From positions 28,679 through 92,678 of the forward strand of contig DAHUYQ010000010.1 in NCBI GenBank assembly GCA_027315115.1: a DNA stretch of 64,000 bases, written 5' to 3'. This document shows, piece after piece, positions 6,404-62,144 of this stretch. The position numbers and the translations under genes were made by a program. Origin of the DNA: Solirubrobacterales bacterium (lineage in GTDB: Bacteria; Actinomycetota; Thermoleophilia; Solirubrobacterales; Solirubrobacteraceae). Numbering within the stretch: the stretch's first letter is position 1; every line of letters starts with the position of its first letter. Under the pieces are notes generated by a model that was not told the origin of the DNA, did not search any database, and was given only the letters and a program-made list of their open reading frames with translations.

Positions 6404-6859
6404 ATGTTCAAGCGAATAACTCACACCTTCATCCATGTGCTCGACCAGGACCAGGCGCTCGACTTCTACGTCGGCAAGCTCGGCATGGTGGTGCAAGTAG
6501 ACGCCGACCTCGGCTTCATGCGCTGGCTGACGGTCTCCCTCCCCGACCAGCCGGAGCTTCAGCTCGGCCTGATGCTGCCGGGGCCGCCGGCCTACGACGA
6601 CGCGACAGCCGAGCAGATCAGGGAGCTGGTCACCAAGGGCGCCGGCGGCGGTGGCGTGATCTTCGAGACCGACGACTGCCAGCGCACCTTCGAGCAGCTC
6701 CGCGCCGCCGGCGTCGAGTTCACGCAGGAGCCGACCAAGCGCTTCTACGGAACCGACTGCGCGCTGCGCGACCCGTTCGGCAATCCGATCCGCTTCACGC
6801 AGCCCCCGGACGGGCCGATCGTAGTGCCCTCACCCGAGGAGCTTCGCGCGCGGGGATGA
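6404..6859 (+). CDS. VOC/glyoxalase family protein
   Basis: HTFIHVLDQDQAL.FY, FETDDC, GVEFTQEP..RFYG.DCALRDPFGN. Confidence 0.9.
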   Translation: MFKRITHTFIHVLDQDQALDFYVGKLGMVVQVDADLGFMRWLTVSLPDQPELQLGLMLPGPPAYDDATAEQIRELVTKGAGGGGVIFETDDCQRTFEQLRAAGVEFTQEPTKRFYGTDCALRDPFGNPIRFTQPPDGPIVVPSPEELRARG

Positions 6860-7437
6860 GCGCCGGCGAGACGCATCCGCGCATCCTGCTCGTGACGGGA
6901 AGCACCCGCGGCGGGTCCACCAACACCGCCGCGTTGCGCTCGGTCGCCGACCCTGGCGGCCGAGCCGTCACGGAGCTCTTCGAGGGGCTCGCCGACCTGC
7001 CGGCTTTCAACCCGGACGACGACCGCGACCCGTTGCCCGCGAGCGTCGAGGCGCTGCGGTGCCAGATGGGGTCGGCTGCGGGAGTCCTGTTCTGCTCGCC
7101 AGAGTATGCCGGAGCGCTTCCGGGCAGCTTCAAGAACCTCCTCGACTGGATGGTCGGCGGAGGCGGTCTGTACGGCAAGCCGGTTGCGTGGATCAACGTC
7201 GCGGGCCCCGGCCGCGCCGCCGCCGCCGATCAATCGCTGGCGGTCGTGCTCGGGTATCTGGGAGCTGAGGTCGTAGAGGCCGCGTGCAGGCATGTCGTCG
7301 TGCCGCGCGATGCTGTGGGCGCCGATGGCCTGATCCGAGACGAGGCCCTGCGCGCCGATCTCGCCGAGGCGATGCGCGCATTCGTGGACCACATCGCGAG
7401 CGGATCGGACGCTCTCGATCCCGGGCGCTCTCCCTAG
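6856..7437 (+). CDS. NADPH-dependent FMN reductase
   Basis: GSTRGGSTN, SPEYAGALPGSFKNLLDW flavodoxin-like motifs. Confidence 0.9.
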   Translation: MSAGETHPRILLVTGSTRGGSTNTAALRSVADPGGRAVTELFEGLADLPAFNPDDDRDPLPASVEALRCQMGSAAGVLFCSPEYAGALPGSFKNLLDWMVGGGGLYGKPVAWINVAGPGRAAAADQSLAVVLGYLGAEVVEAACRHVVVPRDAVGADGLIRDEALRADLAEAMRAFVDHIASGSDALDPGRSP

Positions 7438-8234
7438 CCTCCCGCCAGCGCCCCGGCGTAGACCTGCCAGGCCAGCGCGCTCTTGGCCAGCAGGCTGAGC
7501 CAGAGGTAGGCGCGCTCGGCGAAGACAGGGTCGCGCCACGGGCCGATGCGCCGGTACTGGAGCCACATGTTGACCGCGAAGCTGCTGAAGAGGAGCAGCA
7601 GCGTGAAGAAGATCGCGAAGACGAACGCCGGGATGCGGCCGGTCTGCGCCTGGGAGACCGCGAGCTGGATGCCGATCGCGACCCAGGGCACGGCTCCCGC
7701 GACGCAGCCGAAGAGAAACGGCCGCCACTCCACGCGCTCGCGCCCGAGGTTGACCCGCTCCATCAGCAGGCCGAAGAGGATCATCGCCGCGTTGACGCCG
7801 AAGAGCGCGACCAGGGCCACCGCGGAGCTCACGCCGGCGAGCATCGCGATCAGGACGACCATCAGCGACGCGCTGATCGAGTACTCCCACCAGCGGGCCG
7901 GGTTGACGCCGCGCGCGACGTTGGCCTGATACCAGGCCCTCGCCCACGGGCTGGCCATCGCCAGGTGGTCGATCGCCGCAAGCGCGAGGAAGGCGGCGAC
8001 CGCGAGATCGATGCGCAGATCGAACAGCAGCACCGGCCCGCCGTAGCGGCCGGCGCCCGGCGGGCCGCGCATGTAGGTCAGATCGACCGGAAGCGAGACC
8101 GGCTTGGCCAGCGCCACGATCAGCAGCGCCTGCCCCAGATGGGCGAGCCCAACCAAAACATTCAGGCGCAGAAGCCGCTTGCGCGCCTGCGGCTCAAGCG
8201 GCGACGGGGCTCGCTCGGGTGCTGCCAGACCCAT
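7434..8234 (-). CDS. heR: Heliorhodopsin
   Basis: Seven TM segments; LAHLGQA and IDHL histidines, NPARWWEYSISASLM counterion Glu, AYLWLSLLAKSALAWQ retinal Lys. Confidence 0.93.
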   Translation of the reverse strand: MGLAAPERAPSPLEPQARKRLLRLNVLVGLAHLGQALLIVALAKPVSLPVDLTYMRGPPGAGRYGGPVLLFDLRIDLAVAAFLALAAIDHLAMASPWARAWYQANVARGVNPARWWEYSISASLMVVLIAMLAGVSSAVALVALFGVNAAMILFGLLMERVNLGRERVEWRPFLFGCVAGAVPWVAIGIQLAVSQAQTGRIPAFVFAIFFTLLLLFSSFAVNMWLQYRRIGPWRDPVFAERAYLWLSLLAKSALAWQVYAGALAGG

Positions 8235-8290
8235 GGATCGCATCTAAGCGGAGGCCGAGCTGGCGCGTCTCCCACTAAACTACGGGTTCT

Positions 8291-8364
<74 letters not shown>

Positions 8365-8588
8365 CTTCTTATTGGCTCTGCGAAGCCAAATCTGCGCCGC
8401 GATGGTGAGCGTCCGCGCTTCCGCTTCGCTGGGTGGGCATGCGCGTGAGCAGGGCATCCTCGTCGGTCGTCTGCAACGCTGGGCGCAGTCGTGGTGCTGC
8501 TGGCGGCGCTTGACCGCGTGCGCGACGAGCGTGACGATCCGCTGTTCCTGCTCAAGGGCGGCACGCACGCGATCCTCCGCGGCGGTCC

Positions 8589-9332
8589 TCACGGCGCGAA
8601 CGCCGCTTCCAACGCGGGCGTCACGTCGCGGTAGCCGCGAACCAGGTGCAGCCGGCCGCGACCAGCGAAGGCGAGGTCGCGCGCCATCTCGCGGTCGTGC
8701 TCGGTCGTCACGTCGCAGAGCACGTCGAGTCGGGGCAGCGCCGCCGCCAGCGGGCGCGGGTCTGGCCCGGCATTGTGGACGCAGTCGGAGAGCAGGACCG
8801 CGCGCGCCCCGCGCGCATCGAAGCTCGCGAGCGCGTCGGTCGCGAGCTCCAGCGGGAAGGCGATGTTGGTCAGTCCCCTGGCCGGCAGCGAGAGCAGCCG
8901 GTAGATCAGCTCCGGTGCGCTCAGCGGCTCGTCGGCCACCTGCAACCAGGCGGCGTCCGACCAGAAGGCCAGCACCGCCAGCCGGTCGTGCGTCAGCGCG
9001 CCGCTCAGAGCGCCGACGGTCGCCGCCGTCAGCCGCACTCGCTCGCCACGCATCGAGCCGGACACGTCGACCAGCAACACGACCGTGCGGCGCGCTCGCG
9101 CACGTTCGCGCACGACGATGTCGGACTGCTCCGGCAGCCGCTTGCCGGCGAGTCGCTCCAGCGTGCGCTCGAGGTCGATCTCATCTGACCGCAACCGGTA
9201 CGGCAGCGCCTGCGCCGGCGCGCGTGGCAGCGGTCGCGGCCGCTGCGCGCGCAGCTGATCTAGCGCCAACCGCACCGCGATGCTTCGCGCCGCATCGCGC
9301 GCCGCGCGGTCCTGCTCGTCGGTCCCGGCCAT
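8589..9332 (-). CDS. VWA-domain protein (frame stays open 75 codons upstream, up to the AAA stop)
   Basis: MIDAS VDVSGSM, LTNI, LLSDCVHNAG; DLERTLE pre-VWA segment. Confidence 0.88.
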   Translation of the reverse strand: MAGTDEQDRAARDAARSIAVRLALDQLRAQRPRPLPRAPAQALPYRLRSDEIDLERTLERLAGKRLPEQSDIVVRERARARRTVVLLVDVSGSMRGERVRLTAATVGALSGALTHDRLAVLAFWSDAAWLQVADEPLSAPELIYRLLSLPARGLTNIAFPLELATDALASFDARGARAVLLSDCVHNAGPDPRPLAAALPRLDVLCDVTTEHDREMARDLAFAGRGRLHLVRGYRDVTPALEAAFAP

Positions 9333-10795: not shown

Positions 10796-12073
10796 ATGAC
10801 ATGGGATTTCTCGACAGAGCCGGAGTGGGAGCAGGAGCTCGACTGGATGCGCGACCTGATGCGGGAGGAGGTCCTGCCGCTGGAGAGCCTGGGCCTCGAC
10901 CATCAGACCTTCATGAAGGCGATTCGCCCGCTGCAGGAGCGCGTCAAGGCGCGGGGGCTGTGGGCCGCGCACCTCGGACCGGAGCTTGGCGGCGCCGGCT
11001 TTGGGCAGGTCAAGCTGGCGCTGATGCACGAGGTGCTCGGAGCGTCCGAGCTCGGGCCGCCGGTGTTCGGCAACCAGGCACCGGACTCGGGGAACATCGA
11101 GCTGATGGCGATCGCCGCGAACGAGGAGCAGCGCGAGCGCTGGCTGGCGCCGTTGCTCGGCGGCGAGGTCCTGAGCGCCTTCTCGATGACCGAGCTGGGC
11201 ACCGGCTCCGACCCCAGGCAGTTCAAGACGCGCGCGGTGCGCGAGGGCGACGAGTGGGTGATCGACGGCACCAAGTGGTTCGTCTCCAACGCCGACCGCA
11301 GCGCCTTTCACATCGTGATGTGCGTGACAGACCCCGATGCGGACCCCTATCGGGGCCAGTCGATGATTATCGTGCCGACCGACGCGCCCGGAATCGAGAT
11401 GCGTAAGCTCGGCATCCTCAACGACCCCCACCACGTCGGGCCGGTCCACGACCACTGCGAAGTCAACTATCGCGGCGTGCGGGTTCCCGCCGGAAACCTC
11501 CTTGGGGAGCAGGGCGGCGCCTTCACGCTCGCGCAGAAGCGGCTTGGACCTGGGCGCATCCACCACTGCATGCGCTGGCTGGGCGTGGCCAGACGTGCCT
11601 TCGACGCCATGTGCGAGCGCGCCGTCTCGATGAGCGTGCACGGGAGCCTGCTCGCGGAGAAGGAGTTCATCCAGGACTTCATCGCGCTCTCGGCGGCCGA
11701 GATCGCGGCGGCACGGCTGCTGACAATAAACACCGCCTGGAAGATCGATCAGGTGGGCGCCTCCAACTGCCGCGTGGAGATCTCGATGATCAAGTACCAC
11801 GGCGCAAAGGTCCTGCACAACGTGCTGGATCGCTCGATCCAGGTGCACGGATCGCTGGGGCTCTCGACCGACATGCCGCTGCAGGAGATGTACGCCTACT
11901 CGCGCTCTGCCCGCATGTACGACGGGCCGGACGAGGTGCACAAGGCGACCGCCGCCCGGCTGATCGCGCGCCAGTACGCGCCGCGCGAGGTCCCGACCGA
12001 TCACATTCCGACGCGTCGCGCGGCCGCGCTGGAGAAGTACCGTGACCTGTTCGACCTCGTCTCGGCGCAGTAG
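10796..12073 (+). CDS. Acyl-CoA dehydrogenase (ACAD10/11 / LvaC-like subfamily)
   Basis: NQAPDSGNIE, AFSMTE, QKRLGPGRIHHCMR, RMYDGPDEVH; aaggag SD upstream. Confidence 0.92.
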   Translation: MTWDFSTEPEWEQELDWMRDLMREEVLPLESLGLDHQTFMKAIRPLQERVKARGLWAAHLGPELGGAGFGQVKLALMHEVLGASELGPPVFGNQAPDSGNIELMAIAANEEQRERWLAPLLGGEVLSAFSMTELGTGSDPRQFKTRAVREGDEWVIDGTKWFVSNADRSAFHIVMCVTDPDADPYRGQSMIIVPTDAPGIEMRKLGILNDPHHVGPVHDHCEVNYRGVRVPAGNLLGEQGGAFTLAQKRLGPGRIHHCMRWLGVARRAFDAMCERAVSMSVHGSLLAEKEFIQDFIALSAAEIAAARLLTINTAWKIDQVGASNCRVEISMIKYHGAKVLHNVLDRSIQVHGSLGLSTDMPLQEMYAYSRSARMYDGPDEVHKATAARLIARQYAPREVPTDHIPTRRAAALEKYRDLFDLVSAQ

Positions 12074-12156
12074 AGGATCACGCGTGTCGTGGTCGCCTTG
12101 CTCTCAGCTTGAGGTGCCTCCACGTTTCTCGCTGAACTGGACAGTCGACGTGGTGG

Positions 12157-12172
12157 TTGGTGAATCATCCAA
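12157..12172. promoter_or_regulatory. TTGK-N8-MCAA palindrome
   Basis: TTGG-tgaatcat-CCAA, intergenic. Confidence 0.6.
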
Positions 12173-12319
12173 CGTGTGAGCGCTCGGGCTCACCCGCGCC
12201 TGCTCGCAGAAGCTAGCTTCGTGTCAGAAGCGCAGGGCGGTCGCGCCGGCATGGCCGTCCGCCGATGACGAACGCGAGGCGCGTGCGCAGCGTCGCAAGC
12301 GCATATGGGAGGAACGCCG

Positions 12320-12742
12320 ATGGCAACCGAGGTGGGTGCGGAGAGCGCGGAGGAGCGCAACAAGCAGCTCGTCACCGAGTTCATGGAGGTGTTCGGCCGC
12401 GGAGATGTGCAGGACATCCTCTCCTACATGAGCGAGAACGCCACGTGGTGGGTGGGCGGCACGATGGAAGGCATCTCCGGCACCAAGGACAGGCAGGCGT
12501 TCGGCGAGATGCTGAGTGGCATATCGGCCAGCGTCAACGGCGGCATCCAGCTCAAGCCGCTCGCCTGGACCTGCCAGGGCGAGCGCGTGGCGGTCGAGAC
12601 CGAATCCTACGCCGAGCTCCACAACGGCCGCATATACAACAATCTGTACCATTTCGTGTTCGTCGTCAAAGACGGCAAGATCGAATGTGTGAAGGAGTTT
12701 CTGGACACCGAGCACACGACGGCTGTCTTCCTGGCTCCCTGA
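12320..12742 (+). CDS. SnoaL-like/NTF2 family protein
   Basis: NKQLVTEF...YNNLYHFVFVVKDGKIECVKEFLDT. Confidence 0.85.
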   Translation: MATEVGAESAEERNKQLVTEFMEVFGRGDVQDILSYMSENATWWVGGTMEGISGTKDRQAFGEMLSGISASVNGGIQLKPLAWTCQGERVAVETESYAELHNGRIYNNLYHFVFVVKDGKIECVKEFLDTEHTTAVFLAP

Positions 12743-12756
12743 GCCCGCGGCAGTGC

Positions 12757-12772
12757 TTGTACAAAGCTCCAA
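12757..12772. promoter_or_regulatory. TTGK-N8-MCAA palindrome
   Basis: TTGT-acaaagct-CCAA, intergenic. Confidence 0.6.
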
Positions 12773-12874
12773 GCGTGTAGGCCTGTGCGCTGTCGGCAGC
12801 TCGTCGCGCGGAGAGATCGTGGCCGGCGACCGCAGCCAGCGAGCAAGACGGCGACCTAAGAGAAGGAGAAGAGT

Positions 12875-13396
12875 GTGACTGACCAGCCCGTCGAGGAGAC
12901 GCCTTTCATCGGCAACACGGTGCAGGTGGCGATCGTCAGCGACGACCTCCACAAGGGGATCGATCAGCTTGCGCGGCTTGGCATCGGGCCGTTCGCCGTC
13001 TTCAAAGTCACACCGGCGAACTGCACCGAGCAGCGTTACGACGGCAAGCCGGCGCGGTTCGAGATGACCCTCGCCTTCACGAACGCCGCCAACATGATGT
13101 GGGAGGTGATCCAGCCGGAATCGGGGCCGACGATCTACCAGGACTTCCTCGACGCCGGCCACCGTGGGATCAACCACGTAGCCGTCGACTGTGGCGAGCT
13201 CACCTACGAGCAGCGGGTCGCCGGCCTGATCGACCGCGGCTACCGCGAGCTGCAGGGGGGCGTGGCGTTCAACGGGGATGTGCCGTTCAGCTACTGGCAC
13301 AACGGTGATCCCGACGCGCCGATCATCGAGATCTTCGACTTCCCCGAGGGCTTCGAGCCGACGCCCGACGAAGTCTATCCGGCGCCTGCCGCCTGA
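12875..13396 (+). CDS. VOC family protein (methylmalonyl-CoA epimerase-like)
   Basis: QVAIV, WEVIQPESGPTIYQDFL...GINHVA. Confidence 0.85.
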   Translation: MTDQPVEETPFIGNTVQVAIVSDDLHKGIDQLARLGIGPFAVFKVTPANCTEQRYDGKPARFEMTLAFTNAANMMWEVIQPESGPTIYQDFLDAGHRGINHVAVDCGELTYEQRVAGLIDRGYRELQGGVAFNGDVPFSYWHNGDPDAPIIEIFDFPEGFEPTPDEVYPAPAA

Positions 13397-40587: not shown

Positions 40588-41270
40588 GCGCTCGACCAGT
40601 TGTCCAGCAGGTCGAGCATCTGGCGGGTCGCGTGGTCGAGCAGCATGCGGCCGTGCTCCGCTGTGGCGCCGGTGGGATCGCCGAGCACGCCGTTGGGGCT
40701 CACGCTGCGCACGCCCTCGCGCGCCAGCCGCGGCAGGATCTTGCCCAGCGGGGCGCGCTCGCCGGGCTCGGCCAACTCCAGGCGCACCCGCGAGGGATCC
40801 AGCGCGAGCATGATCGAGGTCTCGACATGCCCGGCATGCGCGTCGCCGGGCAAGCGCGGGAAGAAGGCGCGCACGTCGCGTCCCTCGGCGCGCAGGCGCC
40901 GCTCGGCGTTGTGGACGGCCTCGCTGTTGCCGCCATGCGTCGAGACGATCAGCATCCGCGAGAACCGCTCGATCGCCGAGCGTCCGAGCTCCACGAGCAG
41001 CAGCTCGATCGCTTCGGAGCCGATCGAGAGCGTGCCGGCGAAGGCTGCGTGCTCGCCGCTGGAGCCGTAGGCGACTGGCGGCGCGACGACCACGCCGCCG
41101 CGCCTGCCGGCCAGTCGGAAGGCGAGTGCCTGGGCGATGTCGGTGTCGGTCGAGAGCGGCAGATGACGCCCATGCTGCTCGGTCGCGCCCACCGGCACCG
41201 CCAGCAGCGCCCCGCCGGAGGCGAAGTCGTCGGCGTCCACCCAGGTGAGCTCGCCCAGCGCCGTGCTCAT
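40584..41270 (-). CDS. mftE: Mycofactocin peptidase MftE (creatininase family)
   Basis: PVGATEQHGRHLPLSTDT, GSSGEH, HGGN, DAHAGHVETS, SPNGVLGDP. Confidence 0.95.
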   Translation of the reverse strand: MSTALGELTWVDADDFASGGALLAVPVGATEQHGRHLPLSTDTDIAQALAFRLAGRRGGVVVAPPVAYGSSGEHAAFAGTLSIGSEAIELLLVELGRSAIERFSRMLIVSTHGGNSEAVHNAERRLRAEGRDVRAFFPRLPGDAHAGHVETSIMLALDPSRVRLELAEPGERAPLGKILPRLAREGVRSVSPNGVLGDPTGATAEHGRMLLDHATRQMLDLLDNWSSA

Positions 41271-42466
41271 CCGGCCGCTTGCACCTCTTCCCTCTCGCCG
41301 CCCAGCCGCCGGACGAACCCCTCTGGGACCAGGACGTCGCTTGCCCGCAGCGAGCCGACCGAGTCGCGCGCGAGCCCCAGCAGCGCCGAGTCGATCCCGC
41401 CGCGCAGGATGTCGAGCACGTTCTCGACCCCGGCCTGGCCGTTTGCCGCAAGGCCCCACAGGTAGGGGCGGCCGATCATCACCGCTCTGGCGCCGAGCGC
41501 GAGCGCCTTCACCACGTCCGCGCCGCGGCGGATGCCGCCGTCCAGCAGCACCTCCACGCGATCACCGACGGCGTCGACGATCGCCGGCAGCGCGCGGATC
41601 GAGGCCGGGGTGCCGTCGAGGTTGTTGCCTCCGTGGTTGGAGACCGAGATCGCGCTCGCGCCGATCTCCGCCGCCCGCCGCGCGTCGTCGACGCGCATGA
41701 TCCCCTTGATCATCAGCGGCCCGTCCCACTGCTCGCGCAGCCACCGCAGGTCCTCCCAGGAGGGCGGCGGCGTCTGCATCCACTCGCCGTATGCCTCGAA
41801 GAACCTCGGTGGCGCCTCTCCGGGCAGCGCCATGTTGGGGACCGTCAGGTCTGGTGGCCCTCCGGCGCGCAGCCAGCCGGCCAGCCACCTCGGTCGCGAG
41901 AGCGCGGAGGGCGCCAGGCGCAGCATCGCCGCGACGCTCATGCTCTCCGGGATCTGCGGGCTGCCCCAGTCGCGCGCGTGGGAGAAGGTCCAGTCGAGAG
42001 TCACGATCAGGCCCGCGGCGCCGGCCTGTCGCGCGCGTGCCAGTCGCTCCGAGATCCGCTCCCGCGCACCGGCCCAGTAGACCTGCATGAACGTCTTCGG
42101 GTTGACGGCCAGCACATCCTCGATCGGACTGCTCGCGAACGCGCTCAGTCCCATCGCCGTGCCGCGCGCGGCGGCGGCACGGGCGACGGCGACCTCGCCT
42201 TCTGGATGCACCGCCTGCACGCCGACCGGCGAGATCAGCACCGGCAGCGCGATCTGCTGTCCCATCGCCGTCGTCGCGATCTGGCGTTGCGCAGGGGCGC
42301 CCGCGACGTGCGGCGCGAAGCCGAGATCCCCGAAGGCGGCGGTGTTCGATGCCAGCGTGACGCCTGCCTCCGCCCCCGCGCGAAGCGCCATGTAGACCGA
42401 GCGCGGCAGCGCCCGCTCGGCGCGCCGCTGCGCCTCGGCGACGCTCTCGAACCATCCTCCCGGCAT
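41267..42466 (-). CDS. mftD: Mycofactocin FMN-dependent deaminase MftD
   Basis: WFESVAEAQRRA, SPVGVQAVHP, HARDWGSP, SVSNHGGNNLDG, LDGGIRRG. Confidence 0.96.
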   Translation of the reverse strand: MPGGWFESVAEAQRRAERALPRSVYMALRAGAEAGVTLASNTAAFGDLGFAPHVAGAPAQRQIATTAMGQQIALPVLISPVGVQAVHPEGEVAVARAAAARGTAMGLSAFASSPIEDVLAVNPKTFMQVYWAGARERISERLARARQAGAAGLIVTLDWTFSHARDWGSPQIPESMSVAAMLRLAPSALSRPRWLAGWLRAGGPPDLTVPNMALPGEAPPRFFEAYGEWMQTPPPSWEDLRWLREQWDGPLMIKGIMRVDDARRAAEIGASAISVSNHGGNNLDGTPASIRALPAIVDAVGDRVEVLLDGGIRRGADVVKALALGARAVMIGRPYLWGLAANGQAGVENVLDILRGGIDSALLGLARDSVGSLRASDVLVPEGFVRRLGGEREEVQAAG

Positions 42467-43722
42467 CAGGGCGCTCGCAGGCCGGTCGATGCGTGAGCGG
42501 GCTCGCGGCGGTCCGGGCCCACAGGGCTCTGGTCGCACAGGCGAGAGGGCGGGGACTCGATCACCGGAGAGGGCGGGGACTCGATCACCGGCAGCCTGCG
42601 CGGCGCGCGTCGGGAGGGCCGCCGCTTGGACATGTCCACCGATGGCATCGGCCGCGGTCCTTTCCCGTGTGCCGCCAGCGCCCGCTCGCCGTGGCCGAGC
42701 ACGCACTCCGGGTCGGGCCCCTGCAGAGGCAGGCCGGTGAAGAACTTGGCGGCCATGCAGCCGCCGCGGCACGCGTCGAAGAAGCCGCAGCTCCCACACG
42801 CCCCCGCCGACTGGGGCTCTCGCAGCTCCCGCAGCAGCGCCGAGTCTCGCCAGACGCCGGCGAAGCCTCCGGGCTCGCGCACGTTGCCGGCCAGGAACTG
42901 CTCGTGGATCGCGAAGGGGCAGGCGTACACGTCGCCGACCGGGTCGATCAGGCAGACCACGCGGCCGGCTCCGCACATGTTCAGGCCCGGCAGCGCCTGC
43001 CCGTATGCGGATAGGTGAAAGAAGGAGTCTCCCGTGAGAACCTGCTCGCCCTGCGCCAGCAGCCAGGCATGCACCTCGCGCTGCTGCTCGGCCGTCAGCC
43101 GCAACTGGTCCCACACCTGCGCGCCGCGCCCGGATGGACGCAGGCGCGTGAGCCGAAGCTGCGCCCCGAAGCGGTCGGCGATCGCCTTCAGCGCGTCGAG
43201 CTGCCCGGCGTTCTCCCGCGTCAGCACGGTGGAGACCTTGAACTCGCCGAAGCCCGCCTCGGCGAGGTTGCTCATCGCGTCGACCGCCGTCTGGAAGGAG
43301 CCCTGCCCGCGCACCGCGTCGTTGACCTCCGCGGTGGCGCCGTCGATGGAGATCTGCACGTCGACGTAGTCGCAGGCCGCAAGCCGCGCCGCGGCCTGGG
43401 CATCGATGCGGCTGCCGTTGGTCGAGAACTTCACCCCCACGTCGTGGGCCTGCGCGTGGTCGAGCAGCTCCCAGAAGTCACGCCGCACGGTCGGCTCTCC
43501 GCCGCCGATGTTCACGTAGAAGACCTGCATCCGCTGCAGCTCCTCGATCACCGCCTTGCACTCCCGCGTGCTCAGCTCGCGCGGGTCGCGCCGCCCCGAG
43601 CTGGAGAGGCAGTGCGCGCACGCGAGGTTGCAGGCGTAGGTCAGCTCCCAGGTCAGGCAGATCGGCGCGTCGAGACCGGCTTCGAAGTGCTCGACGAGGC
43701 TCCTGGCCGTCGCGGCGCTCAT
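42466..43722 (-). CDS. mftC: Mycofactocin radical SAM maturase MftC
   Basis: APICLTWELTYACNLACAHC, SPASM CGAGRVVCLID, C..C..FDACRGGCMAAK, DPEC. Confidence 0.97.
   Translation of the reverse strand: MSAATARSLVEHFEAGLDAPICLTWELTYACNLACAHCLSSSGRRDPRELSTRECKAVIEELQRMQVFYVNIGGGEPTVRRDFWELLDHAQAHDVGVKFSTNGSRIDAQAAARLAACDYVDVQISIDGATAEVNDAVRGQGSFQTAVDAMSNLAEAGFGEFKVSTVLTRENAGQLDALKAIADRFGAQLRLTRLRPSGRGAQVWDQLRLTAEQQREVHAWLLAQGEQVLTGDSFFHLSAYGQALPGLNMCGAGRVVCLIDPVGDVYACPFAIHEQFLAGNVREPGGFAGVWRDSALLRELREPQSAGACGSCGFFDACRGGCMAAKFFTGLPLQGPDPECVLGHGERALAAHGKGPRPMPSVDMSKRRPSRRAPRRLPVIESPPSPVIESPPSRLCDQSPVGPDRREPAHASTGLRAP
42543..42590. repeat. 24-bp tandem duplication in the mftC tail
   Basis: gagagggcggggactcgatcaccg x2 (encodes PVIESPPS x2). 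Confidence 0.85.
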
Positions 43723-44006
43723 GCCGACGCGCCTTTTTGAGGATGGATCATGCCGGCGGCGGCGAGGCTTGCGAGCGCCCGCGCGAAGCGCGGCATCTCC
43801 TGCTCGCAGACGCCGGCCGCCAGGCATGCCTCGCGCGCGGTCGCGCGCGTCCCGAGCGTCCTGGCCACCTCATGCAGGCGGCGGTCCTTGAGAAAGCTCA
43901 GGCGGCGCGTTCCGAAGTGGTAGGCCAGCGCGCCGAAGCGCTCCGGTCGCAGCGCGACCTGAGAATCGAGTCGCCAGGCGCGATCGAGGTCGATGTGGGC
44001 CGACAC
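43719..44006 (-). CDS. mftB: Mycofactocin chaperone MftB (RRE)
   Basis: QVALRPERFGALAYHFGTRRLSFLK. Confidence 0.95.
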   Translation of the reverse strand: MSAHIDLDRAWRLDSQVALRPERFGALAYHFGTRRLSFLKDRRLHEVARTLGTRATAREACLAAGVCEQEMPRFARALASLAAAGMIHPQKGASA

Positions 44007-44014
44007 GGCTGCCC

Positions 44015-44176
44015 TCAATAGACGCCGCACATGCCGTCGATCGAGACTTCCTCGACGAGCAGGTCTTCGAGCACCAGAGCGTCGTCCGACTCGCCCGCGG
44101 TCGCGACGGCGTGTACGCGGACTTGCTCCGGCGCCTCGGGCGTCGCCAGGTCTGCCTCCAGGGTCTTCTCAGTCAT
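44015..44176 (-). CDS. mftA: Mycofactocin precursor peptide MftA
   Basis: Ends LLVEEVSIDGMCGVY; start MTEK at 44176 (or MEDP at 44188). Confidence 0.97.
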   Translation of the reverse strand: MTEKTLEADLATPEAPEQVRVHAVATAGESDDALVLEDLLVEEVSIDGMCGVY

Positions 44177-44244
44177 GGGATCCTCCATCCTCTTCTTGCG
44201 GCCGCGGATCCACCGGGGCTGCGTTCTCAATACAGCTACCATGT

Positions 44245-44263
44245 TTCGTCACCCGGTGTCAAA
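44245..44263. promoter_or_regulatory. Putative MftR operator
   Basis: T-tc-GTCA-cccgg-TGTC-aa-A, two substitutions from the mycobacterial T-N2-GGCA-N5-TGCC-N2-A pattern as I recall it; lies in the mftA/mftR divergent gap. Confidence 0.65.
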
Positions 44264-44277
44264 TTAAATCCGAGCGG

Positions 44278-44931
44278 ATGCCCGTCGACGCGCAAAGACG
44301 ATCGGGACGCCCGCGCACGAGCTCTCGCGAGGAGGTCTCCGAGATCGCCCTGCGGCTGTTCGTGCGACGCGGCTTCGAGCAGACCACGCTGCAGGACGTG
44401 GCGGACGCCGTCGGCGTCAGCAAGCGCACGCTCCTGCGCTACTTCCCTTCCAAGAACGACATCGTCTGGGGCGCCTTCGACGAGCAGCTCCAGGCGCTGC
44501 GCGCGCGACTGGCCGACGCAGATCCCACGCGGCCCATGATGGACGTCCTGCGAGAGGCGGTCGTCGCCTTCAACGACTACGGCGAGGCGGTGCTCCCCGA
44601 GCTGCGCGACCGGATGACGCTGATCACGTCCGTGCCCGCCCTGCAGGCGCACTCGATGCTGCGCTACGCGGACTGGTGCGCGGTGATCGCGGAGTTCGTG
44701 GCGCGGCGCCTGAGCCTGGAGCCAGATCACCAGTTCCCGCAGGTGATAGCGAGCGCCGCTCTGGGCACCGCGATGGCGACCTATCGCTGCTGGGTCGTCG
44801 ACCCCGACCTCGACCTGCTGGCAGCGCTCGACGAGGCGTTTCGGCTGCTGGCCGCGGGGTTTGACGCGCAGGCGCTCGGAGCCGGAAGACCCGCTCATGC
44901 CGGCAGCCGGGGAGCATCGCGGGCGCGCTGA
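44278..44931 (+). CDS. mftR: TetR-family regulator MftR
   Basis: GRPRTSSREE...GVSKRTLLRYFPSKNDIVWG, LITSVPALQAHSMLRYA.W; divergent from mftA. Confidence 0.95.
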   Translation: MPVDAQRRSGRPRTSSREEVSEIALRLFVRRGFEQTTLQDVADAVGVSKRTLLRYFPSKNDIVWGAFDEQLQALRARLADADPTRPMMDVLREAVVAFNDYGEAVLPELRDRMTLITSVPALQAHSMLRYADWCAVIAEFVARRLSLEPDHQFPQVIASAALGTAMATYRCWVVDPDLDLLAALDEAFRLLAAGFDAQALGAGRPAHAGSRGASRAR

Positions 44932-46880
44932 GTCGCGGCCAGGCCGGCGGCAAGCGCCTGGCCCTCGCGAATCGCAGCGGAGGCATCGCGTGGCGTCAGC
45001 GCGTCGCCGATCAGGATCGTGGGAACGCCTGCCGCGCCGAGCTGCGCCTCGATCTCGGCGCCGTCGGGGATCGGCGTCGAGGAAGCCACGATCGTCTCGG
45101 CGGGCACGGTGGCGGTCGCGCCGGAGTAGACGTTGAGGATCTCCACGCCGCTGTCCCCGGCGCTCACCGCGACGTGGTCGGTGATCATGCGCACGCCGGC
45201 GATCACGAGCTCGCGATAGAGGGAGAGGAAGGTGGGGCCGTCCAGATCCGCGCCCACGAGCGGGCCCGGCGTCACGAGCGTGATCGTCTCGATCCCTCGA
45301 AGATGCGCCTCCAGGGCGGCGCTCCACAACGGCGGCCCGGCGGCGCCGAGGTCCAGCAGCGCCACGCTCTCGGCGTCCCGCCGGCTCAGAAGGAACTCCT
45401 CCAGGGACAGCGCTCCGTCCAGCGCTGCGGGCGCCGGGGCCGGACGCGCGCCACATGCGAGCACCACCAGGTCGGGCGCGAGCGCCAGGATCGAGTCCGC
45501 GCTCGCCGCCTGGCCAAACCGCAGCTTCACTCCGTGGCGGCGGACTTCGGCTGCCGCCCACTCGACGTACTCGCCCCAGCCGTCTCGCCGGCCGGTTGCC
45601 GCCGCCAGCGCGAGCCTGCCGCCCACCGCCTGCTCGCGCTCCAGCAGAATCGTCTCGTGGCCGGCGCGCGCCGCCGCGCAGGCCGCCTCCATTCCCGCCG
45701 GCCCGGCGCCGACGACCACGACGCGCTGCCCGCCGCCGGCGGTGCCGGCGGGAGCTCGCTCCCCGGCGCCGACCCATGGGTTGACCGTGCAGCCGACGGG
45801 CAGCAGCTTCATCGAATTGCCGACGCATAGCTGATTGCAGCCGGTGCACGGCCTGATCCGCTCGCGCTCGCCGCGCAGCGCCTTGGCGGCGAAGTCGGGG
45901 TCGGCGATCAGCTCCCTGGCCATCCCGATCGCGTAGGCGTGCCCTTCCTCCAGCAGCCGCTCGGCGTACTCCGGCGTCCTGATGCGACCGAATGCGACGA
46001 TCGGCACGCCGACCTGTCCGGCGGCGGCCGAGAAGGCCTCCTGCGCGTATCCCTCGGGTGTCGGCATCGGCGCCACGACCCTGTCCACGCTCGCCCAGAT
46101 GCCGACGTCGGCGCAGATCCCGTCCACCAGCCCGGAGTCCGCGAAGGCACGGGCGAACGCGAGCCCTTCCTCCAGTCCGTAGCCGCCGGGCAGGCACTCG
46201 TCCAGGACCAGCCTGACGCTCAGCGCGACTCCGGGGCCGATCGCCTCGCGCACCGCGGCGGCGATCTGCAGCGGGTAGCGCATCCGGTTCTCCACGCTAC
46301 CTCCGTACCCGTCCCGGCGGTCGTTGCACAGGGGGGAGAGGAACTGCCGCAGCAGACCGTCGTGAGCGACCTTGATCTCCACTGCGTCGAAGCCTGCGGC
46401 CGCGAAGCTGCCGGCCCCGGCGGCGAAGTCCCCGCGCACGCGCTCCATGTCGGCCTCGTCCATCGGGCGGGAGGACTCTCGCATCGCCGCGTCGGGCAGC
46501 CGCGAGGGACCGATCAGGGGCGCCCGAGTCACCAACTGGGCGGCCTGATTGCCGTAGTGGGTGAGCTGCCCGGAGATGCTCGCGCCGTGGCTGTGCACGG
46601 CCGCCGCGATCCGGGCGTAGCCCTCGACGCAGCCGGGATCGCTGGAGAGCACCAGCGGCGCGCCCTGCTGGCCGTCGAGCGAGACGACCGAGGACTCCAC
46701 GCACACCAAGCCGACGCCACCGGCCGCGCGGGCCTCGTAGTAGCGCAGGTGCGCCTCGGTCGGGCGCAGCGCTCCGCGCTCGGCGAAGAACAGCCCGTGC
46801 GGAAGCAGCACGATGCGGTTGGCCAGCTCCATCGGCCCGATCCGGCCCGGGCTTGCCAGCAGGGGAAAGGCACTGCTCAT
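44895..46880 (-). CDS. OYE/FadH-family flavin oxidoreductase (mycofactocin-associated type)
   Basis: NRIVL, DGYGGSVENRMR, CTGCNQ.C...CTVNP Fe-S motif, VGAGPAG Rossmann motif. Confidence 0.9.
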   Translation of the reverse strand: MSSAFPLLASPGRIGPMELANRIVLLPHGLFFAERGALRPTEAHLRYYEARAAGGVGLVCVESSVVSLDGQQGAPLVLSSDPGCVEGYARIAAAVHSHGASISGQLTHYGNQAAQLVTRAPLIGPSRLPDAAMRESSRPMDEADMERVRGDFAAGAGSFAAAGFDAVEIKVAHDGLLRQFLSPLCNDRRDGYGGSVENRMRYPLQIAAAVREAIGPGVALSVRLVLDECLPGGYGLEEGLAFARAFADSGLVDGICADVGIWASVDRVVAPMPTPEGYAQEAFSAAAGQVGVPIVAFGRIRTPEYAERLLEEGHAYAIGMARELIADPDFAAKALRGERERIRPCTGCNQLCVGNSMKLLPVGCTVNPWVGAGERAPAGTAGGGQRVVVVGAGPAGMEAACAAARAGHETILLEREQAVGGRLALAAATGRRDGWGEYVEWAAAEVRRHGVKLRFGQAASADSILALAPDLVVLACGARPAPAPAALDGALSLEEFLLSRRDAESVALLDLGAAGPPLWSAALEAHLRGIETITLVTPGPLVGADLDGPTFLSLYRELVIAGVRMITDHVAVSAGDSGVEILNVYSGATATVPAETIVASSTPIPDGAEIEAQLGAAGVPTILIGDALTPRDASAAIREGQALAAGLAATQRARDAPRLPA

Positions 46881-48400
46881 GTGTGGGTCTCCCCGCCCTC
46901 GTCCGGGCCGGGTGCCTTCGCCTGAGCCGGCGCCTCGCTCGGCGCGGAGACCGCCGCATCGACTGGCGCGGAGACCGCCACATCGACCGGCGCGGTGCGC
47001 GACGGGTCGATCGGATGCCAGTGCGGCGGGCTCAGCAGCGCGCGGCGCGCCTCCGCGTCCGGCTTTTCCCCGGGCCCGTAATGGCGGCCGTCGATCGGCC
47101 ACACGTAACCCTCAAGCTCGTCGCTGCCCTTGCCGAGGATCTCGCCGCCGCTGGCCACGAAGTGGCTGCTGACCGCATCCAGGCCGTATCGCTGGACGGG
47201 GCAGACCTTCATGCAGACCGCGCAGCCCTCCGCCGTCGCGACGACCGGGAAGCACCGCTCGGTCTTGATCTTCACCTTCCGGATTCCGCGGTGCTCGCCG
47301 CGGCGGTTGGGGATCGCTCCCACCGGACAGCGCTGCACGCACGCCTGGCATGCATCGCAGATCGCGTGCACGCCGTAATCGACCGGCTCGTTGTGGACTA
47401 GCAGCGCGTCGGTGGTGATCAGGCTCAGGCGGGCCCGCGACCCGGCGGCCGGCGTCAGTAGCTGGCCGTTGAGGCCCAACTGGCCCAGGCCGGCCTGCAC
47501 GCCGTAGTGAATCGCCACCGCCTCACCGGTGAAAGAGTGCGGATGCGCGCGGTGGCCCTGGCGCTCGACGAACTCCGCGAGCGCGACCGCACGGGTCTGC
47601 AAGCCCGCATAGGCGCGGAACGCGGCACGCTCGGAGCGCGCGCTGGGGGCCGTCTGCGTGGCCGCCCAGTCCTGCTCGTAGACGCAGACGATCACGCTGC
47701 CCTGGTCGTGGCTGCCCGCGTACTCCGCGAAGGTGTACTTCGGGTCGTAGGCGGCGAAGCCGACGGCACTGATGCCAAGCCGGGCCGCCTCGGCGCGGAT
47801 CTGAGCGCTCAGCCGCGCGGCGTCGAGCCTCTGGCCGGTTGCGGCCGCGGTCGCCGCTGACCCCTGGTCGGCCGCGGTCGCCGCGGGCCTCTGGTCTGCC
47901 GCCCCGCCGGCTGCCGCGGGGCTGCGGCCCGCGAGCGCCGCCCCGCCCCGCCGTTGGGCCCCCCGCGCGCTGGCCAGCATCGGGACCCGTGCGAGCGCCT
48001 TGGCCATCTCGGGCGCCGCCGGCAGCACGAAGTGCCAGCTATGCCTGAGGATCGCGGGCAGGTTCTCGCTGTGCACGCGCATGAAGTCGTGCAGCGGACG
48101 CTCTCGAAACGCGGCCTCTTCGGCATCGGCGTCGCGCCAGATCCCCGCCACGGTGCGAAGCTGCTGCGGGGTCTCGGTGCTCGAAGCCGGCCACACCGGG
48201 GCCGGCGCGACCCGGCGCAGCGAGCGCGGCAGTGCCGGTAGGTGGCGCATCCAACCGACGCCCTCGGGGTCCAGGCTGCTGCTCGTCAGACGCCCGACCA
48301 TCGGATCGAGCGACATGCGCGCGCGCCGCAGCGCGGTGCGCAGCCGCGGCGGCAACGCCAGCCATAGGTCGTGACTGTCATCTCCCCACTTCACTTGCAC
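46877..48400 (-). CDS. Reductive dehalogenase/QueG-family cobalamin 2x[4Fe-4S] protein
   Basis: AGLGQLGLNGQLLTP..GSRARLSLITTD, CDACQACVQRCP, C-X9-CAVCMKVCP; no TAT signal seen; gaggaaagg SD before GTG 48400. Confidence 0.8.
   Translation of the reverse strand: MQVKWGDDSHDLWLALPPRLRTALRRARMSLDPMVGRLTSSSLDPEGVGWMRHLPALPRSLRRVAPAPVWPASSTETPQQLRTVAGIWRDADAEEAAFRERPLHDFMRVHSENLPAILRHSWHFVLPAAPEMAKALARVPMLASARGAQRRGGAALAGRSPAAAGGAADQRPAATAADQGSAATAAATGQRLDAARLSAQIRAEAARLGISAVGFAAYDPKYTFAEYAGSHDQGSVIVCVYEQDWAATQTAPSARSERAAFRAYAGLQTRAVALAEFVERQGHRAHPHSFTGEAVAIHYGVQAGLGQLGLNGQLLTPAAGSRARLSLITTDALLVHNEPVDYGVHAICDACQACVQRCPVGAIPNRRGEHRGIRKVKIKTERCFPVVATAEGCAVCMKVCPVQRYGLDAVSSHFVASGGEILGKGSDELEGYVWPIDGRHYGPGEKPDAEARRALLSPPHWHPIDPSRTAPVDVAVSAPVDAAVSAPSEAPAQAKAPGPDEGGETHT
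46941..46995. repeat. 24-bp tandem repeat in the Rdh-like C-tail
   Basis: ggcgcggagaccgcc(g/a)catcgac(t/c) x2 plus a partial copy. Confidence 0.8.
47842..47895. repeat. 27-bp tandem repeat in the Rdh-like linker
   Basis: cggccgcggtcgccgc...ctggt x2. Confidence 0.75.
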
Positions 48401-48762: not shown

Positions 48763-49506
48763 ATGATCAAGCTCTTGTACTGCCTGCGCCGCCGTCCGGA
48801 GTTGACCCTTCAGGAGTTTCAGCAGCATTGGGCCGAGCACCATTCCCAGTTCGGCCGCGCCAACCGGCAGGTTCTGCGCTACGTGCAATACCACGCGCTG
48901 CAGGACGACCCGATCCGGCAGGCGCTGCCGCAGGCCGGCGCGGGACACGATGACCCGGCCCCCTACGACGGCATGGCCGCCGCGTGGTTCGAGAGCCCGA
49001 GCGCGCTCGCCGAGAGCATGACCTCCCCGAACGTCGCGGCGGCTCTCGAGGACGAGAAGCTGTTCATCGATCACTCCCGCTCCAGCGCGGTCCTTTGCGA
49101 TGAGCATGTGATCGTCGAGCCGGAAGGGCAGGGCCCGATCGTGCTGGTCGAGTGTCTTGCGCGCCGCGCGGACATCGACCGCCGCTTCTTCAGCGAGCGC
49201 TGGCTGGCGCACGGGCACATCGGACGCAAGGCCAACGAGCTCGGCCTGCTGCAGGGCTACATCCAGAACCATGCGCTCGTTGAGGACGACGCGCGCGTGC
49301 GCGAGCTCGAGAAGCTGGGGACCGCGGCGCAAGGGTGGGACGGGATCGTGACCGCCTACTTTCACAGCATCGCGGTGGCAAAGGCGCTGTTCGGCAACCC
49401 GCTCGCCTCAGAGGAGTCCTTCGAGGACGAGAAGCAGTTCATAGACCACAGCAAGGGTCAGTACATGCTCGCGCGCAGGCACGTGGTCAAGGACTTCGTG
49501 CGCTGA
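48763..49506 (+). CDS. Tandem EthD-domain protein
   Basis: EFQQHWAEHH, RYVQYH, YDGMAAAWF...EDEKLFID, then a second GYIQNH/WDGIVTAYF/EDEKQFID. Confidence 0.85.
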   Translation: MIKLLYCLRRRPELTLQEFQQHWAEHHSQFGRANRQVLRYVQYHALQDDPIRQALPQAGAGHDDPAPYDGMAAAWFESPSALAESMTSPNVAAALEDEKLFIDHSRSSAVLCDEHVIVEPEGQGPIVLVECLARRADIDRRFFSERWLAHGHIGRKANELGLLQGYIQNHALVEDDARVRELEKLGTAAQGWDGIVTAYFHSIAVAKALFGNPLASEESFEDEKQFIDHSKGQYMLARRHVVKDFVR

Positions 49507-49532
49507 GCGGGCGCCGATACGGGAGTCATTCG

Positions 49533-50621
49533 ATGATCGAGCCATATACAGCAGTCGCTCTCTCACCGCGCGTGTCCGCGTGCGCCGACCGCGGCGACTA
49601 CATGCGCAACATCGAGCACATCAAGTCATTCATGGACACCGCCTACGGCATGGCGAGCACCGATGGCCCGCCGGTCAAGCTGATGGTGCTCCCCGAGGGC
49701 GCCTTCCAAAGCCTGCTGGTGGACTTTCGCGGCGGAGATCGGCGTCGCGAGGCAGAGATGGCGGTCGAGATACCCGGCCCCGAGACGGCGGCGCTGGGCG
49801 AGAAGGCGCGCGACCTCGGGACGTTCATAGCCGGCAACGCCTACGTCGTGCGCGACGACGACTTCCCCGACCGCTACTTCAACCGCGCGTTCCTCATAGA
49901 CCCGCGGGGCGACGTGGTCTACACGCGAACCAAGCTGCAGGTGGAGCCCTTCGAGCCCGAGGTGGTCAGCACCTGCGTGCCGCATGACGTCTGGGACCGG
50001 TGGATCGAGGTGAAGGGAAATGGCGATCCGATGCAGGCGCTCTACCCGGTCGCCGACACCGAGATAGGCCGCATCGGAATGATCATCTGCATGGAGGGTG
50101 GATACCCCGAGATCGGCCGGGGCCTGGCCCTGAACGGCGCGGAGATACTGCTGCGGCAGGTCTACCACGAGCCGTATGTGAGCAATGGATGGTGGGAGCT
50201 GCAGAGCCGCTCCTTCGCGGTGGCCAACAACGCCTACGTCGTGGCGCCCAACCTCGGGCCGCAGAGCTACAGCTTCGACGGGCCGCTGTATGACATCGGC
50301 GGGGGCAAGTCGATGATCGTCGACTTTCGCGGCCACGTGATGGTTCAGCGCGAGTTTGCCGCCGCCGACACATTCGTCTCCGAGTGCCTGGACGTCGAGG
50401 CGCTGCGGCGCTACCGCAGCCAGAACGGGTTCGGCCGCTGGTTCAAGGACCTGCGGATGGAGCAGTTCGCCGCTATCTACCAGCGGCCGATCTATCCGAA
50501 GAACCAGTACCTGGAGGAGCCTCCGACGGAGGGATGGGGAGAGCGCGAGCAGGCCGTGCTGGCGGCGAACATCGAGCGTCTGAAGCAAGGGGGAGTGCTG
50601 GCGTCGCCCGCCGGCGCCTGA
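49533..50621 (+). CDS. Nitrilase-related carbon-nitrogen hydrolase
   Basis: Triad candidates: LPEG Glu, TRTK Lys, IICMEG Cys. Confidence 0.85.
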   Translation: MIEPYTAVALSPRVSACADRGDYMRNIEHIKSFMDTAYGMASTDGPPVKLMVLPEGAFQSLLVDFRGGDRRREAEMAVEIPGPETAALGEKARDLGTFIAGNAYVVRDDDFPDRYFNRAFLIDPRGDVVYTRTKLQVEPFEPEVVSTCVPHDVWDRWIEVKGNGDPMQALYPVADTEIGRIGMIICMEGGYPEIGRGLALNGAEILLRQVYHEPYVSNGWWELQSRSFAVANNAYVVAPNLGPQSYSFDGPLYDIGGGKSMIVDFRGHVMVQREFAAADTFVSECLDVEALRRYRSQNGFGRWFKDLRMEQFAAIYQRPIYPKNQYLEEPPTEGWGEREQAVLAANIERLKQGGVLASPAGA

Positions 50622-50733
50622 GCCGAGTCGCTCTCTGTGCGGGACGAGGAGGGGAAGCCCGCGGGTCTGCTGCAAAAACGACGCGTCCATCGAACGCCCT
50701 GCCAAGCACGGCTGCTGAAAGGAGCAGACTTCC

Positions 50734-61397: not shown

Positions 61398-62084
61398 ATG
61401 AGCTCAGAGGAGAACGCACAACAGGACGAGGTCTCCACGCGCGTGCCGCTGTCGCGGATGCGACGTGCGATAGCCGCCTCGATGAACGTGAGCGCCCAGG
61501 TGCCGCAGTTCACGCTCGACCGAGCCGTCGGGCTGGCGCAGGCGGCCGCCCTGCGCGAGCGGCTGCGCGCCGGCGGCGCGGCCGCGTCCTGGGAAGACCT
61601 GCTGGTGGCCGCGTGCGCTCGGGCGCTGCGCGAGCACCCGTGGGTCAACGCGAGCTTCGACGATGACGGGATCGAGCTGCACTCCGGGATCAACATCGGC
61701 CTGGCGACCGCGTTGGAGGACGGGCTGGTCAGCCCCGCGGTGCTCGACGCGGACAAGCGCACGCTCGCCGAGCTCGGCGAGGCGCGGCGTGAGCTCCGGG
61801 AGAAGGCGGCGAGCGGCGGCCTGCGCGGCGCCGTGCTCTTCGGCGCGACGTTCACGATCTCCAACCTCGGCCCGTATGGCATCGACCGCTTCAGGGCGCT
61901 GGTGATTCCCCCGCAGGCAGCGATCCTCGCCTGCGGGCGGATCATGGAGATCGACGGGGAGCCGAGCATGAGCCTCACGCTCTCCTGCGATCACCGCGTC
62001 CTGGATGGGGCGCCCGCGGCGCGCTTCCTGGCCAGCGTCTGCTCGCTGCTGAGCGAGCCAGCCTGGCTGCAGGAGCTGGCCTGA
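61398..62084 (+). CDS. 2-oxoacid dehydrogenase E2 acyltransferase, catalytic domain only
   Basis: Starts at PLSRMRRAIA; TFTISNLG, LSCDHRVLDG; no lipoyl or subunit-binding domain. Confidence 0.9.
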   Translation: MSSEENAQQDEVSTRVPLSRMRRAIAASMNVSAQVPQFTLDRAVGLAQAAALRERLRAGGAAASWEDLLVAACARALREHPWVNASFDDDGIELHSGINIGLATALEDGLVSPAVLDADKRTLAELGEARRELREKAASGGLRGAVLFGATFTISNLGPYGIDRFRALVIPPQAAILACGRIMEIDGEPSMSLTLSCDHRVLDGAPAARFLASVCSLLSEPAWLQELA

Positions 62085-62144
62085 TCGGGCGCGGGCCTCC
62101 GGCCGGGGCGCTGGCATCCCTCGGCGGCGCCCCGCCGCCTGCCC

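Follow-up and report, generated by a model that had tools for sequence, protein, structure and literature searches.

The RDHL gene and its overlap with an OYE gene

The window analyzed here (the whole stretch of 64,000 nucleotides from contig DAHUYQ010000010.1 of a Solirubrobacterales bacterium) has a high GC content and belongs to an assembly of 3.3 Mb and 90% completeness, with its nearest matches among Actinomycetota metagenome-assembled genomes. An open reading frame (ORF) on its minus strand (46877-48400) codes for a 507-residue protein resembling reductive dehalogenases (RdhA), with a predicted cobalamin/2x[4Fe-4S] architecture, for which the working name RDHL is used. It is followed on the same strand by the gene of a 661-residue flavoenzyme of the FadH/old yellow enzyme family (OYE, 44895-46880), whose 3′ end meets that of mftR, a gene of the mycofactocin (mft) cluster. 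An earlier note on this DNA had presented the two proteins as a coupled module; its RdhA side stood, including the cytoplasmic character, the lack of RdhB and the Tyr/Arg pair, but the idea of a conserved Rdh, OYE and mycofactocin module did not.

The 507-residue reading of RDHL begins at a GTG with GGAAAGGG before the start codon; the database gene call (P0001) starts at an ATG further upstream, for a length of 536 residues. The RdhA/QueG-type core reported in the earlier note was located at about residues 190-340 (47381-47833), is of the corrinoid-binding type and contains Tyr264 and Arg324, which were identified by residue alignments to PceA and NpRdhA. The two [4Fe-4S] motifs reported with it follow at 47186-47371, with the patterns C348-x2-C351-x2-C354-x3-C358-P and C383...C393-x2-C396-x3-C400-P (Fer4_7, 4.2e-07). 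All eight cysteines were invariant in an alignment of 21 sequences and presented RdhA-type spacing, and these ferredoxin motifs were the sole Pfam match of the protein.

The region of ~190 residues preceding the core, which the earlier note had put at ~200 and called unrecognized, indeed had no match in Pfam or NCBIfam; however, it is not an unrelated add-on, being composed of a conserved family-specific helical domain and a repeat insert. The domain (residues ~1-155, 47936-48400) is helical, conserved across homologues and confidently modeled over residues ~10-150, with a predicted local distance difference test score (pLDDT) of about 80-89, and its W50, P55, P58, W70, P78, A97, P102, H110 and W122 are conserved in homologues. 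It matched just 35 of 1.84 billion representative proteins, nearly always at their own N-terminus, and probably caps the active site. The insert is an Ala/Gly-rich linker (residues ~156-189, 47834-47935; pLDDT <50) which is missing from homologues of less than 89% identity and contains an in-frame 27-bp tandem repeat of 2.3 copies at 47842-47902. At the other end of the protein, sequence past residue ~470 is not conserved, and a repeat scan revealed a likewise in-frame 24-bp tandem repeat (x2.3, 46940-46995) in this lineage-specific tail, which reaches the OYE start; the repeat-made stretch is likewise missing from homologues below 89% identity. Both segments are specific to the lineage, of low complexity and the product of these tandem repeats.

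Hydropathy analysis in 19-residue windows detected neither a twin-arginine translocation (TAT) signal nor a membrane segment, since the best Kyte-Doolittle window reached 1.42, on an Fe-S motif, below the level of a membrane segment or a TAT h-region. RDHL, having no hydrophobic segment, is therefore predicted to be cytoplasmic. Inspection of the neighboring ORFs and gene calls, without a dedicated search, brought up no small gene of the rdhB type. The absence of a TAT signal and of an anchor gene had both been observed in the earlier note, as had the 4-bp ATGA stop/start overlap of RDHL with OYE, which was read from the sequence at 46877-46880 and is also found in the closest related locus (L081).

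Assignment within the RdhA/QueG superfamily

Judged by profile scores and a structural model, RDHL falls with the RdhA members of the RdhA/QueG superfamily, not with the epoxyqueuosine reductase QueG. In the comparison of models that the earlier note had suggested, the top NCBIfam match was TIGR02486 (RdhA), with 88.1 bits against a cut-off of 160.35, whereas the QueG model TIGR00276 gave 44.9 bits for the window protein and 39.6 bits in the genome search, against a cut-off of 200; both scores are sub-threshold, and RDHL did not group with QueG. A profile of 21 family sequences searched against the PDB matched PceA (8q4h) at 5.8e-33, NpRdhA at 7e-28, S. multivorans PceA at 1.8e-27 and QueG at 1e-10. 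Structure prediction, also proposed in the earlier note, pointed in the same direction: the AlphaFold2 model (pLDDT 79, predicted template modeling score 0.81) retrieved RdhA structures by Foldseek at ~1e-12 (probability 1.00), ahead of QueG at ~3e-6. Moreover, Tyr264 aligned to PceA Y246 and NpRdhA Y426, and Arg324 to PceA R305 and NpRdhA K488, and both residues, together with the motif GLGQLGLNGQLLTPxxGSRxR, were invariant in the family alignment. A nitroreductase-like corrinoid core fold, two C-terminal [4Fe-4S] motifs and a Tyr plus Arg/Lys pair, three marks of an RdhA, were all found in RDHL.

It is extremely improbable that RDHL is the epoxyqueuosine reductase of this organism, even though JGI labels many of its homologues as such, Tgt is found above cut-off in the genome (G000, tgt at C41:222371-223528) and no other QueG or QueH match was obtained, RDHL being the sole QueG-like sequence. 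The QueG model gives it 40-45 bits where 200 are required, RdhA structures are far better matches than QueG, the gene is missing in 36 congeneric species, and it sits in a catabolic island. In addition, genome searches found QueA, QueH and a true QueG to be absent from the 90%-complete genome, and epoxyqueuosine should not be made because QueA is absent. As a side observation, Tgt in a genome without QueA, QueG and QueH suggests the salvage of queuine or preQ1, bypassing the epoxyqueuosine steps.

The family defined by RDHL is large, with 1036 database matches at 85-92% query coverage, which bear generic names such as 'ferredoxin', 'epoxyqueuosine reductase' and '4Fe-4S dicluster'. Full-length relatives were found in Solirubrobacterales, Baekduia, Pseudonocardia, Nocardioides and Acidimicrobiales. 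Those of Dehalococcoidia/SAR202 Chloroflexota measure 417-429 residues, are 44-48% identical in the core and keep the RDHL C-terminal tail, while their N-terminus is divergent yet recognizably related. These sequence relationships assign RDHL to a large uncharacterized clade found in aerobic Actinomycetota, the sister proteins of which occur in SAR202 Chloroflexota. Two further observations concern single members of the family: a Baekduia genome (L003) carries two paralogues (7956-9245 and 11936-13234), 2.7 kb apart on opposite strands, and the homologue P0006 (L148:6001-7944, 62% identity) was called at 647 residues, ~200 above the family norm, and may be a fusion or an over-extended call.

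Recurrence of the RDHL neighborhood

The conservation of the pairing was assessed in a synteny sample of ~150 loci drawn from the family. The OYE, MftR, MftC and MftD of the window were searched by tblastn (E<=1e-8) against 142 loci, 80 from genomes and 52 from metagenomes, the rest being exact-protein or genome look-ups; two of the 142 represent the window's own genome. OYE and mft genes accompanied RDHL in one foreign locus only, L081, in which RDHL is 89% identical and the entire layout is that of the window, and the pairing was absent from the ~145 other RDHL loci sampled. The earlier note had staked its proposal beforehand on the recurrence of Rdh, OYE and mft together, and this recurrence was not observed beyond L081. 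Nor did the library of papers that was searched reveal any link of RdhA with mycofactocin or OYE.

The other loci present different companions. Two independent contigs with RDHL relatives of 70-72% identity carry SnoaL-like genes upstream, and a zinc-dependent alcohol dehydrogenase (ADH_zinc) and a bare E2 acyltransferase domain downstream, and the more distant members are surrounded by cytochromes P450, short-chain dehydrogenases/reductases (SDRs), acyl-CoA dehydrogenases, CoA ligases, Rieske proteins and amidohydrolases. The most persistent neighbor is an EthD-domain gene, found in the window, L081, L082 (79% identical) and L093.

The OYE gene was also followed in its own right. In the loci of three orthologues (68, 59 and 57% identity), the gene immediately upstream is in every case an SDR (L143:6255-7004, L144:6193-7038 and L145:6593-6994). 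The SDRs of L143 and L144 overlap with the beginning of OYE; that of L145 is truncated and ends 6 nt before OYE. An SDR followed by OYE looks like the usual pair. L144 presents the same ABC transporter, a 292-residue SDR and mftC-E nearby, and resembles the island of the window except that an SDR takes the place of RDHL. Judged by this gene order, RDHL fills a slot upstream of OYE that is held elsewhere by an SDR. The 70% RDHL relative and the 68% OYE orthologue come from separate contigs of one metagenome sample and are probably from one organism, in which the two genes would be unlinked. A class-level genome search for OYE was negative, a weak result given that three candidates were scored per genome. 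An SDR remnant in the RDHL tail was also considered as proof of replacement and was rejected, as tblastn with the three SDRs matched just other SDR genes of the window.

The non-conserved tail of RDHL, with its repeat, extends to the start of OYE, which agrees with a recently formed junction. Taken together, these comparisons show the RDHL-OYE operon fusion beside mftR to be a recent, lineage-restricted rearrangement within an accessory island. Co-expression of the two genes is probable, and their products may take part in a common pathway, without being a conserved pair.

The tie to mycofactocin was traced to OYE. This protein combines an Oxidored_FMN barrel with FAD/NAD(P) Rossmann domains (Pfam) and a C-x2-C-x3-C-x11-C motif, which correspond to an FMN/[4Fe-4S]/FAD flavoenzyme, and among solved structures it comes closest to those of 2-naphthoyl-CoA reductase (6qkg), histamine dehydrogenase and FadH (1ps9). 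Its top NCBIfam model is TIGR03997 (mycofact_OYE_2), a family annotated as function unknown, with 537.4 bits; the cut-off is 793.15, and OYE is therefore a sister group and not a member by the NCBI threshold. The genomic context of that family was found for OYE, which adjoins mftR in L081 as it does in the window and has mftC-E within 7 kb in L144; no mft genes were found within 7 kb of the orthologues in L143 and L145. Since the FadH/OYE families are not mentioned in Haft 2011 (PMC3023750), their association with mycofactocin rests on the NCBIfam model names TIGR03996 and TIGR03997 and on PMC11162802. Because this association was already curated in those models, it is the OYE gene, and not RDHL, that has the link to mycofactocin, and the connection between B12 chemistry and mycofactocin that the earlier note had suggested as possible for the pair was not supported.

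The mftR ORF (43993-44931, plus strand) scored 241 bits with TIGR03968 (cut-off, 224.9), the model covering residues 103-290; its true start is probably later than that of the ORF, and the mftR of L081 was called at 217 residues. As the earlier note had remarked, OYE ends against this gene: the two converge, with a 37-bp overlap of their 3′ ends, and OYE is not co-transcribed with the mft genes because of this orientation. Beyond mftR lie mftC and mftD (41267-43827, minus strand; ORF limits, with approximate boundaries), both above their cut-offs (TIGR03962, 633 bits; TIGR03966, 663 bits).

On the other side of RDHL, an operon of EthD, CN-hydrolase, SDR and ABC transporter genes starts 363 bp upstream on the opposite strand. 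Its first gene codes for a tandem EthD-domain protein (48763-49506, plus strand; PF07110, 1.6e-25), divergent from RDHL, followed by the CN-hydrolase gene (49533-50684, plus strand; PF00795). Between the window and L082, the locus of the 70% RDHL relative, EthD is 79%, CN-hydrolase 84% and the bare E2 acyltransferase domain 69% identical. This set occupies 48763-50684 and 61434-62090 in the window and 10540-15328 in L082, in a different order, and constitutes a mobile set of catabolic genes. Scanning for promoters and terminators yielded no decisive result.

In the remaining 36 species of the genus (G001-G036), RDHL, any close OYE orthologue and mftC were missing. Because of this absence, the whole island (38384-64000), comprising the mycofactocin genes and their client genes, was considered accessory. 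RDHL and OYE do not stand out as foreign in base composition: their GC of 0.73 lies inside the 5-95% range of the genome (0.646-0.738), and their third-codon-position GC (GC3) is like that of their neighbors.

Proposed function, alternatives and known systems

The reading that we hold to be reasonably probable is that RDHL is a soluble enzyme of the RdhA branch, lacking TAT and RdhB, whose fusion to OYE is recent and local and does not represent a conserved module. From the fold, clusters and catalytic pair, which were demonstrated computationally, we infer the following chemistry. Electrons from a low-potential donor would reach a base-off corrinoid by way of the two [4Fe-4S] clusters. Its cob(I)alamin form would then cleave the substrate reductively, in a reaction of dehalogenation type, and Tyr264, tuned by Arg324, would be the putative proton donor. 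The substrate would probably be an intermediate of the surrounding catabolic island. The cell makes use of cobalamin, as indicated by one cobalamin riboswitch (C26:11840-12018) and five B12-binding-domain proteins.

Several observations weigh against this reading. RDHL is below the curated TIGR02486 cut-off and gave no PF13486 match at E<=0.01, for which reasons dehalogenation by this protein is proposed by analogy only. The 90%-complete genome yielded no CobS, a gap that suggests B12 salvage or a missing part of the assembly. The synteny sample covers a part of the family and is mostly of the distant Dehalococcoidia type. Furthermore, the ATGA overlap is kept in both genomes with the RDHL-OYE pair, and a real functional coupling may exist in the lineage of the window and L081.

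In the module reading that follows from the earlier note, RDHL would have the FadH/OYE protein as its dedicated partner, which would either hand it electrons from NAD(P)H by way of its FAD and [4Fe-4S] or act on the next intermediate, and the pair would tie B12 chemistry to mycofactocin-dependent oxidation. The conserved overlap in the window and L081 is consistent with it, as are the lack of a reductase domain in RDHL, the similar coupling of an RDHL homologue to a different NAD(P)H flavoprotein in L005, and the placement of the nearest solved OYE structures in the class of FadH and trimethylamine dehydrogenase (TMADH). Enzymes of this class contain a [4Fe-4S] cluster, from which TMADH hands electrons to an external partner. 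Nevertheless, this module is improbable, considering that the pairing was seen in one close relative and in none of the ~145 other loci, that OYE orthologues pair with SDRs, that OYE is convergent to mftR and not co-transcribed with mft, and that the literature search returned neither an RdhA-OYE nor an RdhA-mycofactocin link. A narrower form, restricted to this lineage, would have FadH/OYE recruited beside mycofactocin to reduce RDHL with NAD(P)H, electrons passing from the FAD and [4Fe-4S] of OYE to the RDHL clusters. This is a doubtful prospect too; if true, the two proteins would together form an equivalent of the self-sufficient catabolic dehalogenases, with B12 reduction and mycofactocin oxidations serving one acquired island.

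Two other explanations concern the activity of RDHL itself. It could be a B12/Fe-S reductase for non-halogen chemistry, acting on an epoxide, an ether or another leaving group of a catabolic intermediate. The sub-threshold RdhA score would agree with this, as would the wide distribution of the family in aerobes without a known organohalide niche and the nature of its neighbors, which are P450s, EthD, SnoaL-like proteins, SDRs and acyl-CoA enzymes, and not genes for halo-compounds. The invariance of the PceA-type Tyr/Arg pair and the fact that the nearest solved relatives are all dehalogenases speak against it, and we regard it as unlikely, though with an appreciable chance; if true, it would be a third activity in the superfamily. 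Alternatively, RDHL could be mainly an electron-transfer protein for neighboring oxygenases such as P450s and not a catalyst, as the P450 genes overlapping the 3′ end of its homologues in L084 and L091 might suggest, but this is very improbable given a full corrinoid-type core with invariant catalytic residues and the presence of separate small ferredoxins in the P450 clusters.

As to the donor demanded by the RdhA-branch reading, gene neighborhoods were examined, in part with ORFs from a crude GC3-based caller in the high-GC loci, which in the window control mislabeled OYE as RDHL, and these ORFs were used only if confirmed by Pfam. In Pseudonocardia xishanensis (L005), a ferredoxin-reductase-type flavoprotein (6721-7959; Pyr_redox_2 and Reductase_C) shares an ATGA overlap with the RDHL homologue, which starts at 7956, and is plausibly its cognate electron donor. 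A small ferredoxin gene lies just upstream of the homologue in L087, and P450 genes overlap the 3′ end of homologues of 56-60% identity (L084:9352-10611 and L091:2396-3631), L084 being a cluster of six P450s. The contexts in L005 and L087 match the gene context of NpRdhA (PMC10463259). The RDHL genome contains elsewhere one ferredoxin-reductase-type reductase, one small ferredoxin and about nine P450s. On this comparison of neighborhoods, the electron source is apparently not fixed across the RDHL family. It is possible that OYE passes electrons to RDHL in the window, for which adjacency speaks and comparative data do not.

These results remove a tempting, unsupported tie between B12 chemistry of the dehalogenase type and mycofactocin, and shift attention to a very large clade of cytoplasmic RdhA-like enzymes, from aerobic soil Actinomycetota to marine SAR202, in which the dehalogenase pair is kept. 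The varying redox neighbors (ferredoxin reductase, ferredoxin, P450, EthD and OYE) suggest how such enzymes obtain electrons. Knowing what a single member acts on would allow over 1000 genes to be annotated and would show whether corrinoid reductive chemistry is in wide use in the catabolism of aerobes.

Among known systems, respiratory PceA (4uqu, 8q4h) is the best sequence and fold match of RDHL and shares the Tyr246/Arg305 pair. Unlike PceA, RDHL has no TAT leader, h-region or membrane anchor, no rdhB-like gene was noticed (by inspection, without a dedicated search), it scores below TIGR02486, and its genome is that of an apparent aerobe. The catabolic enzymes NpRdhA, BhbA and JtRdhA (4ras, 6zxu; PMC10463259) resemble RDHL in being cytoplasmic and non-respiratory, with B12 and 2x[4Fe-4S], which are predicted in RDHL, and in their catalytic Tyr and the basic residue at the K488 position. 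In contrast to them, RDHL has neither a vestigial, duplicated second cobalamin domain nor a PDOR reductase domain: both NpRdhA domains align onto its single core (residues 186-405), and its N-terminal 150 residues match nothing. It has Arg at the position of NpRdhA Lys488, as does PceA, no equivalent of R552 was identified, and identity in the fold search was ~19%. The 'truncated' catabolic RdhAs use separate ferredoxin and ferredoxin-reductase genes nearby (PMC10463259), a context that resembles those of the homologues in L005 and L087. QueG (5d08, 5d6s) has the superfamily fold and the Fe-S arrangement in common with RDHL, but the match is much weaker and the genome lacks QueA. As for OYE, TIGR03997 (OYE oxidoreductase 2) is its best model and describes genes likewise found beside mft, with OYE below its cut-off.

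The RDHL family corresponds to a type that Han et al. 2025 (PMC12219181), in a paper without mention of Actinomycetota, catalogued in Chloroflexota and Desulfobacterota as 'simplified cytosolic' RdhA-like proteins, which are about 400 residues long and uncharacterized. Like RDHL, they have no TAT signal, no RdhB and a single cobalamin core with 2x[4Fe-4S]; unlike them, RDHL represents an actinobacterial branch with a diverged N-terminal domain, located in aerobic catabolic islands. From its sequence features, RDHL would be best filed as an actinobacterial addition to this catalogued cytosolic RdhA-like kind.

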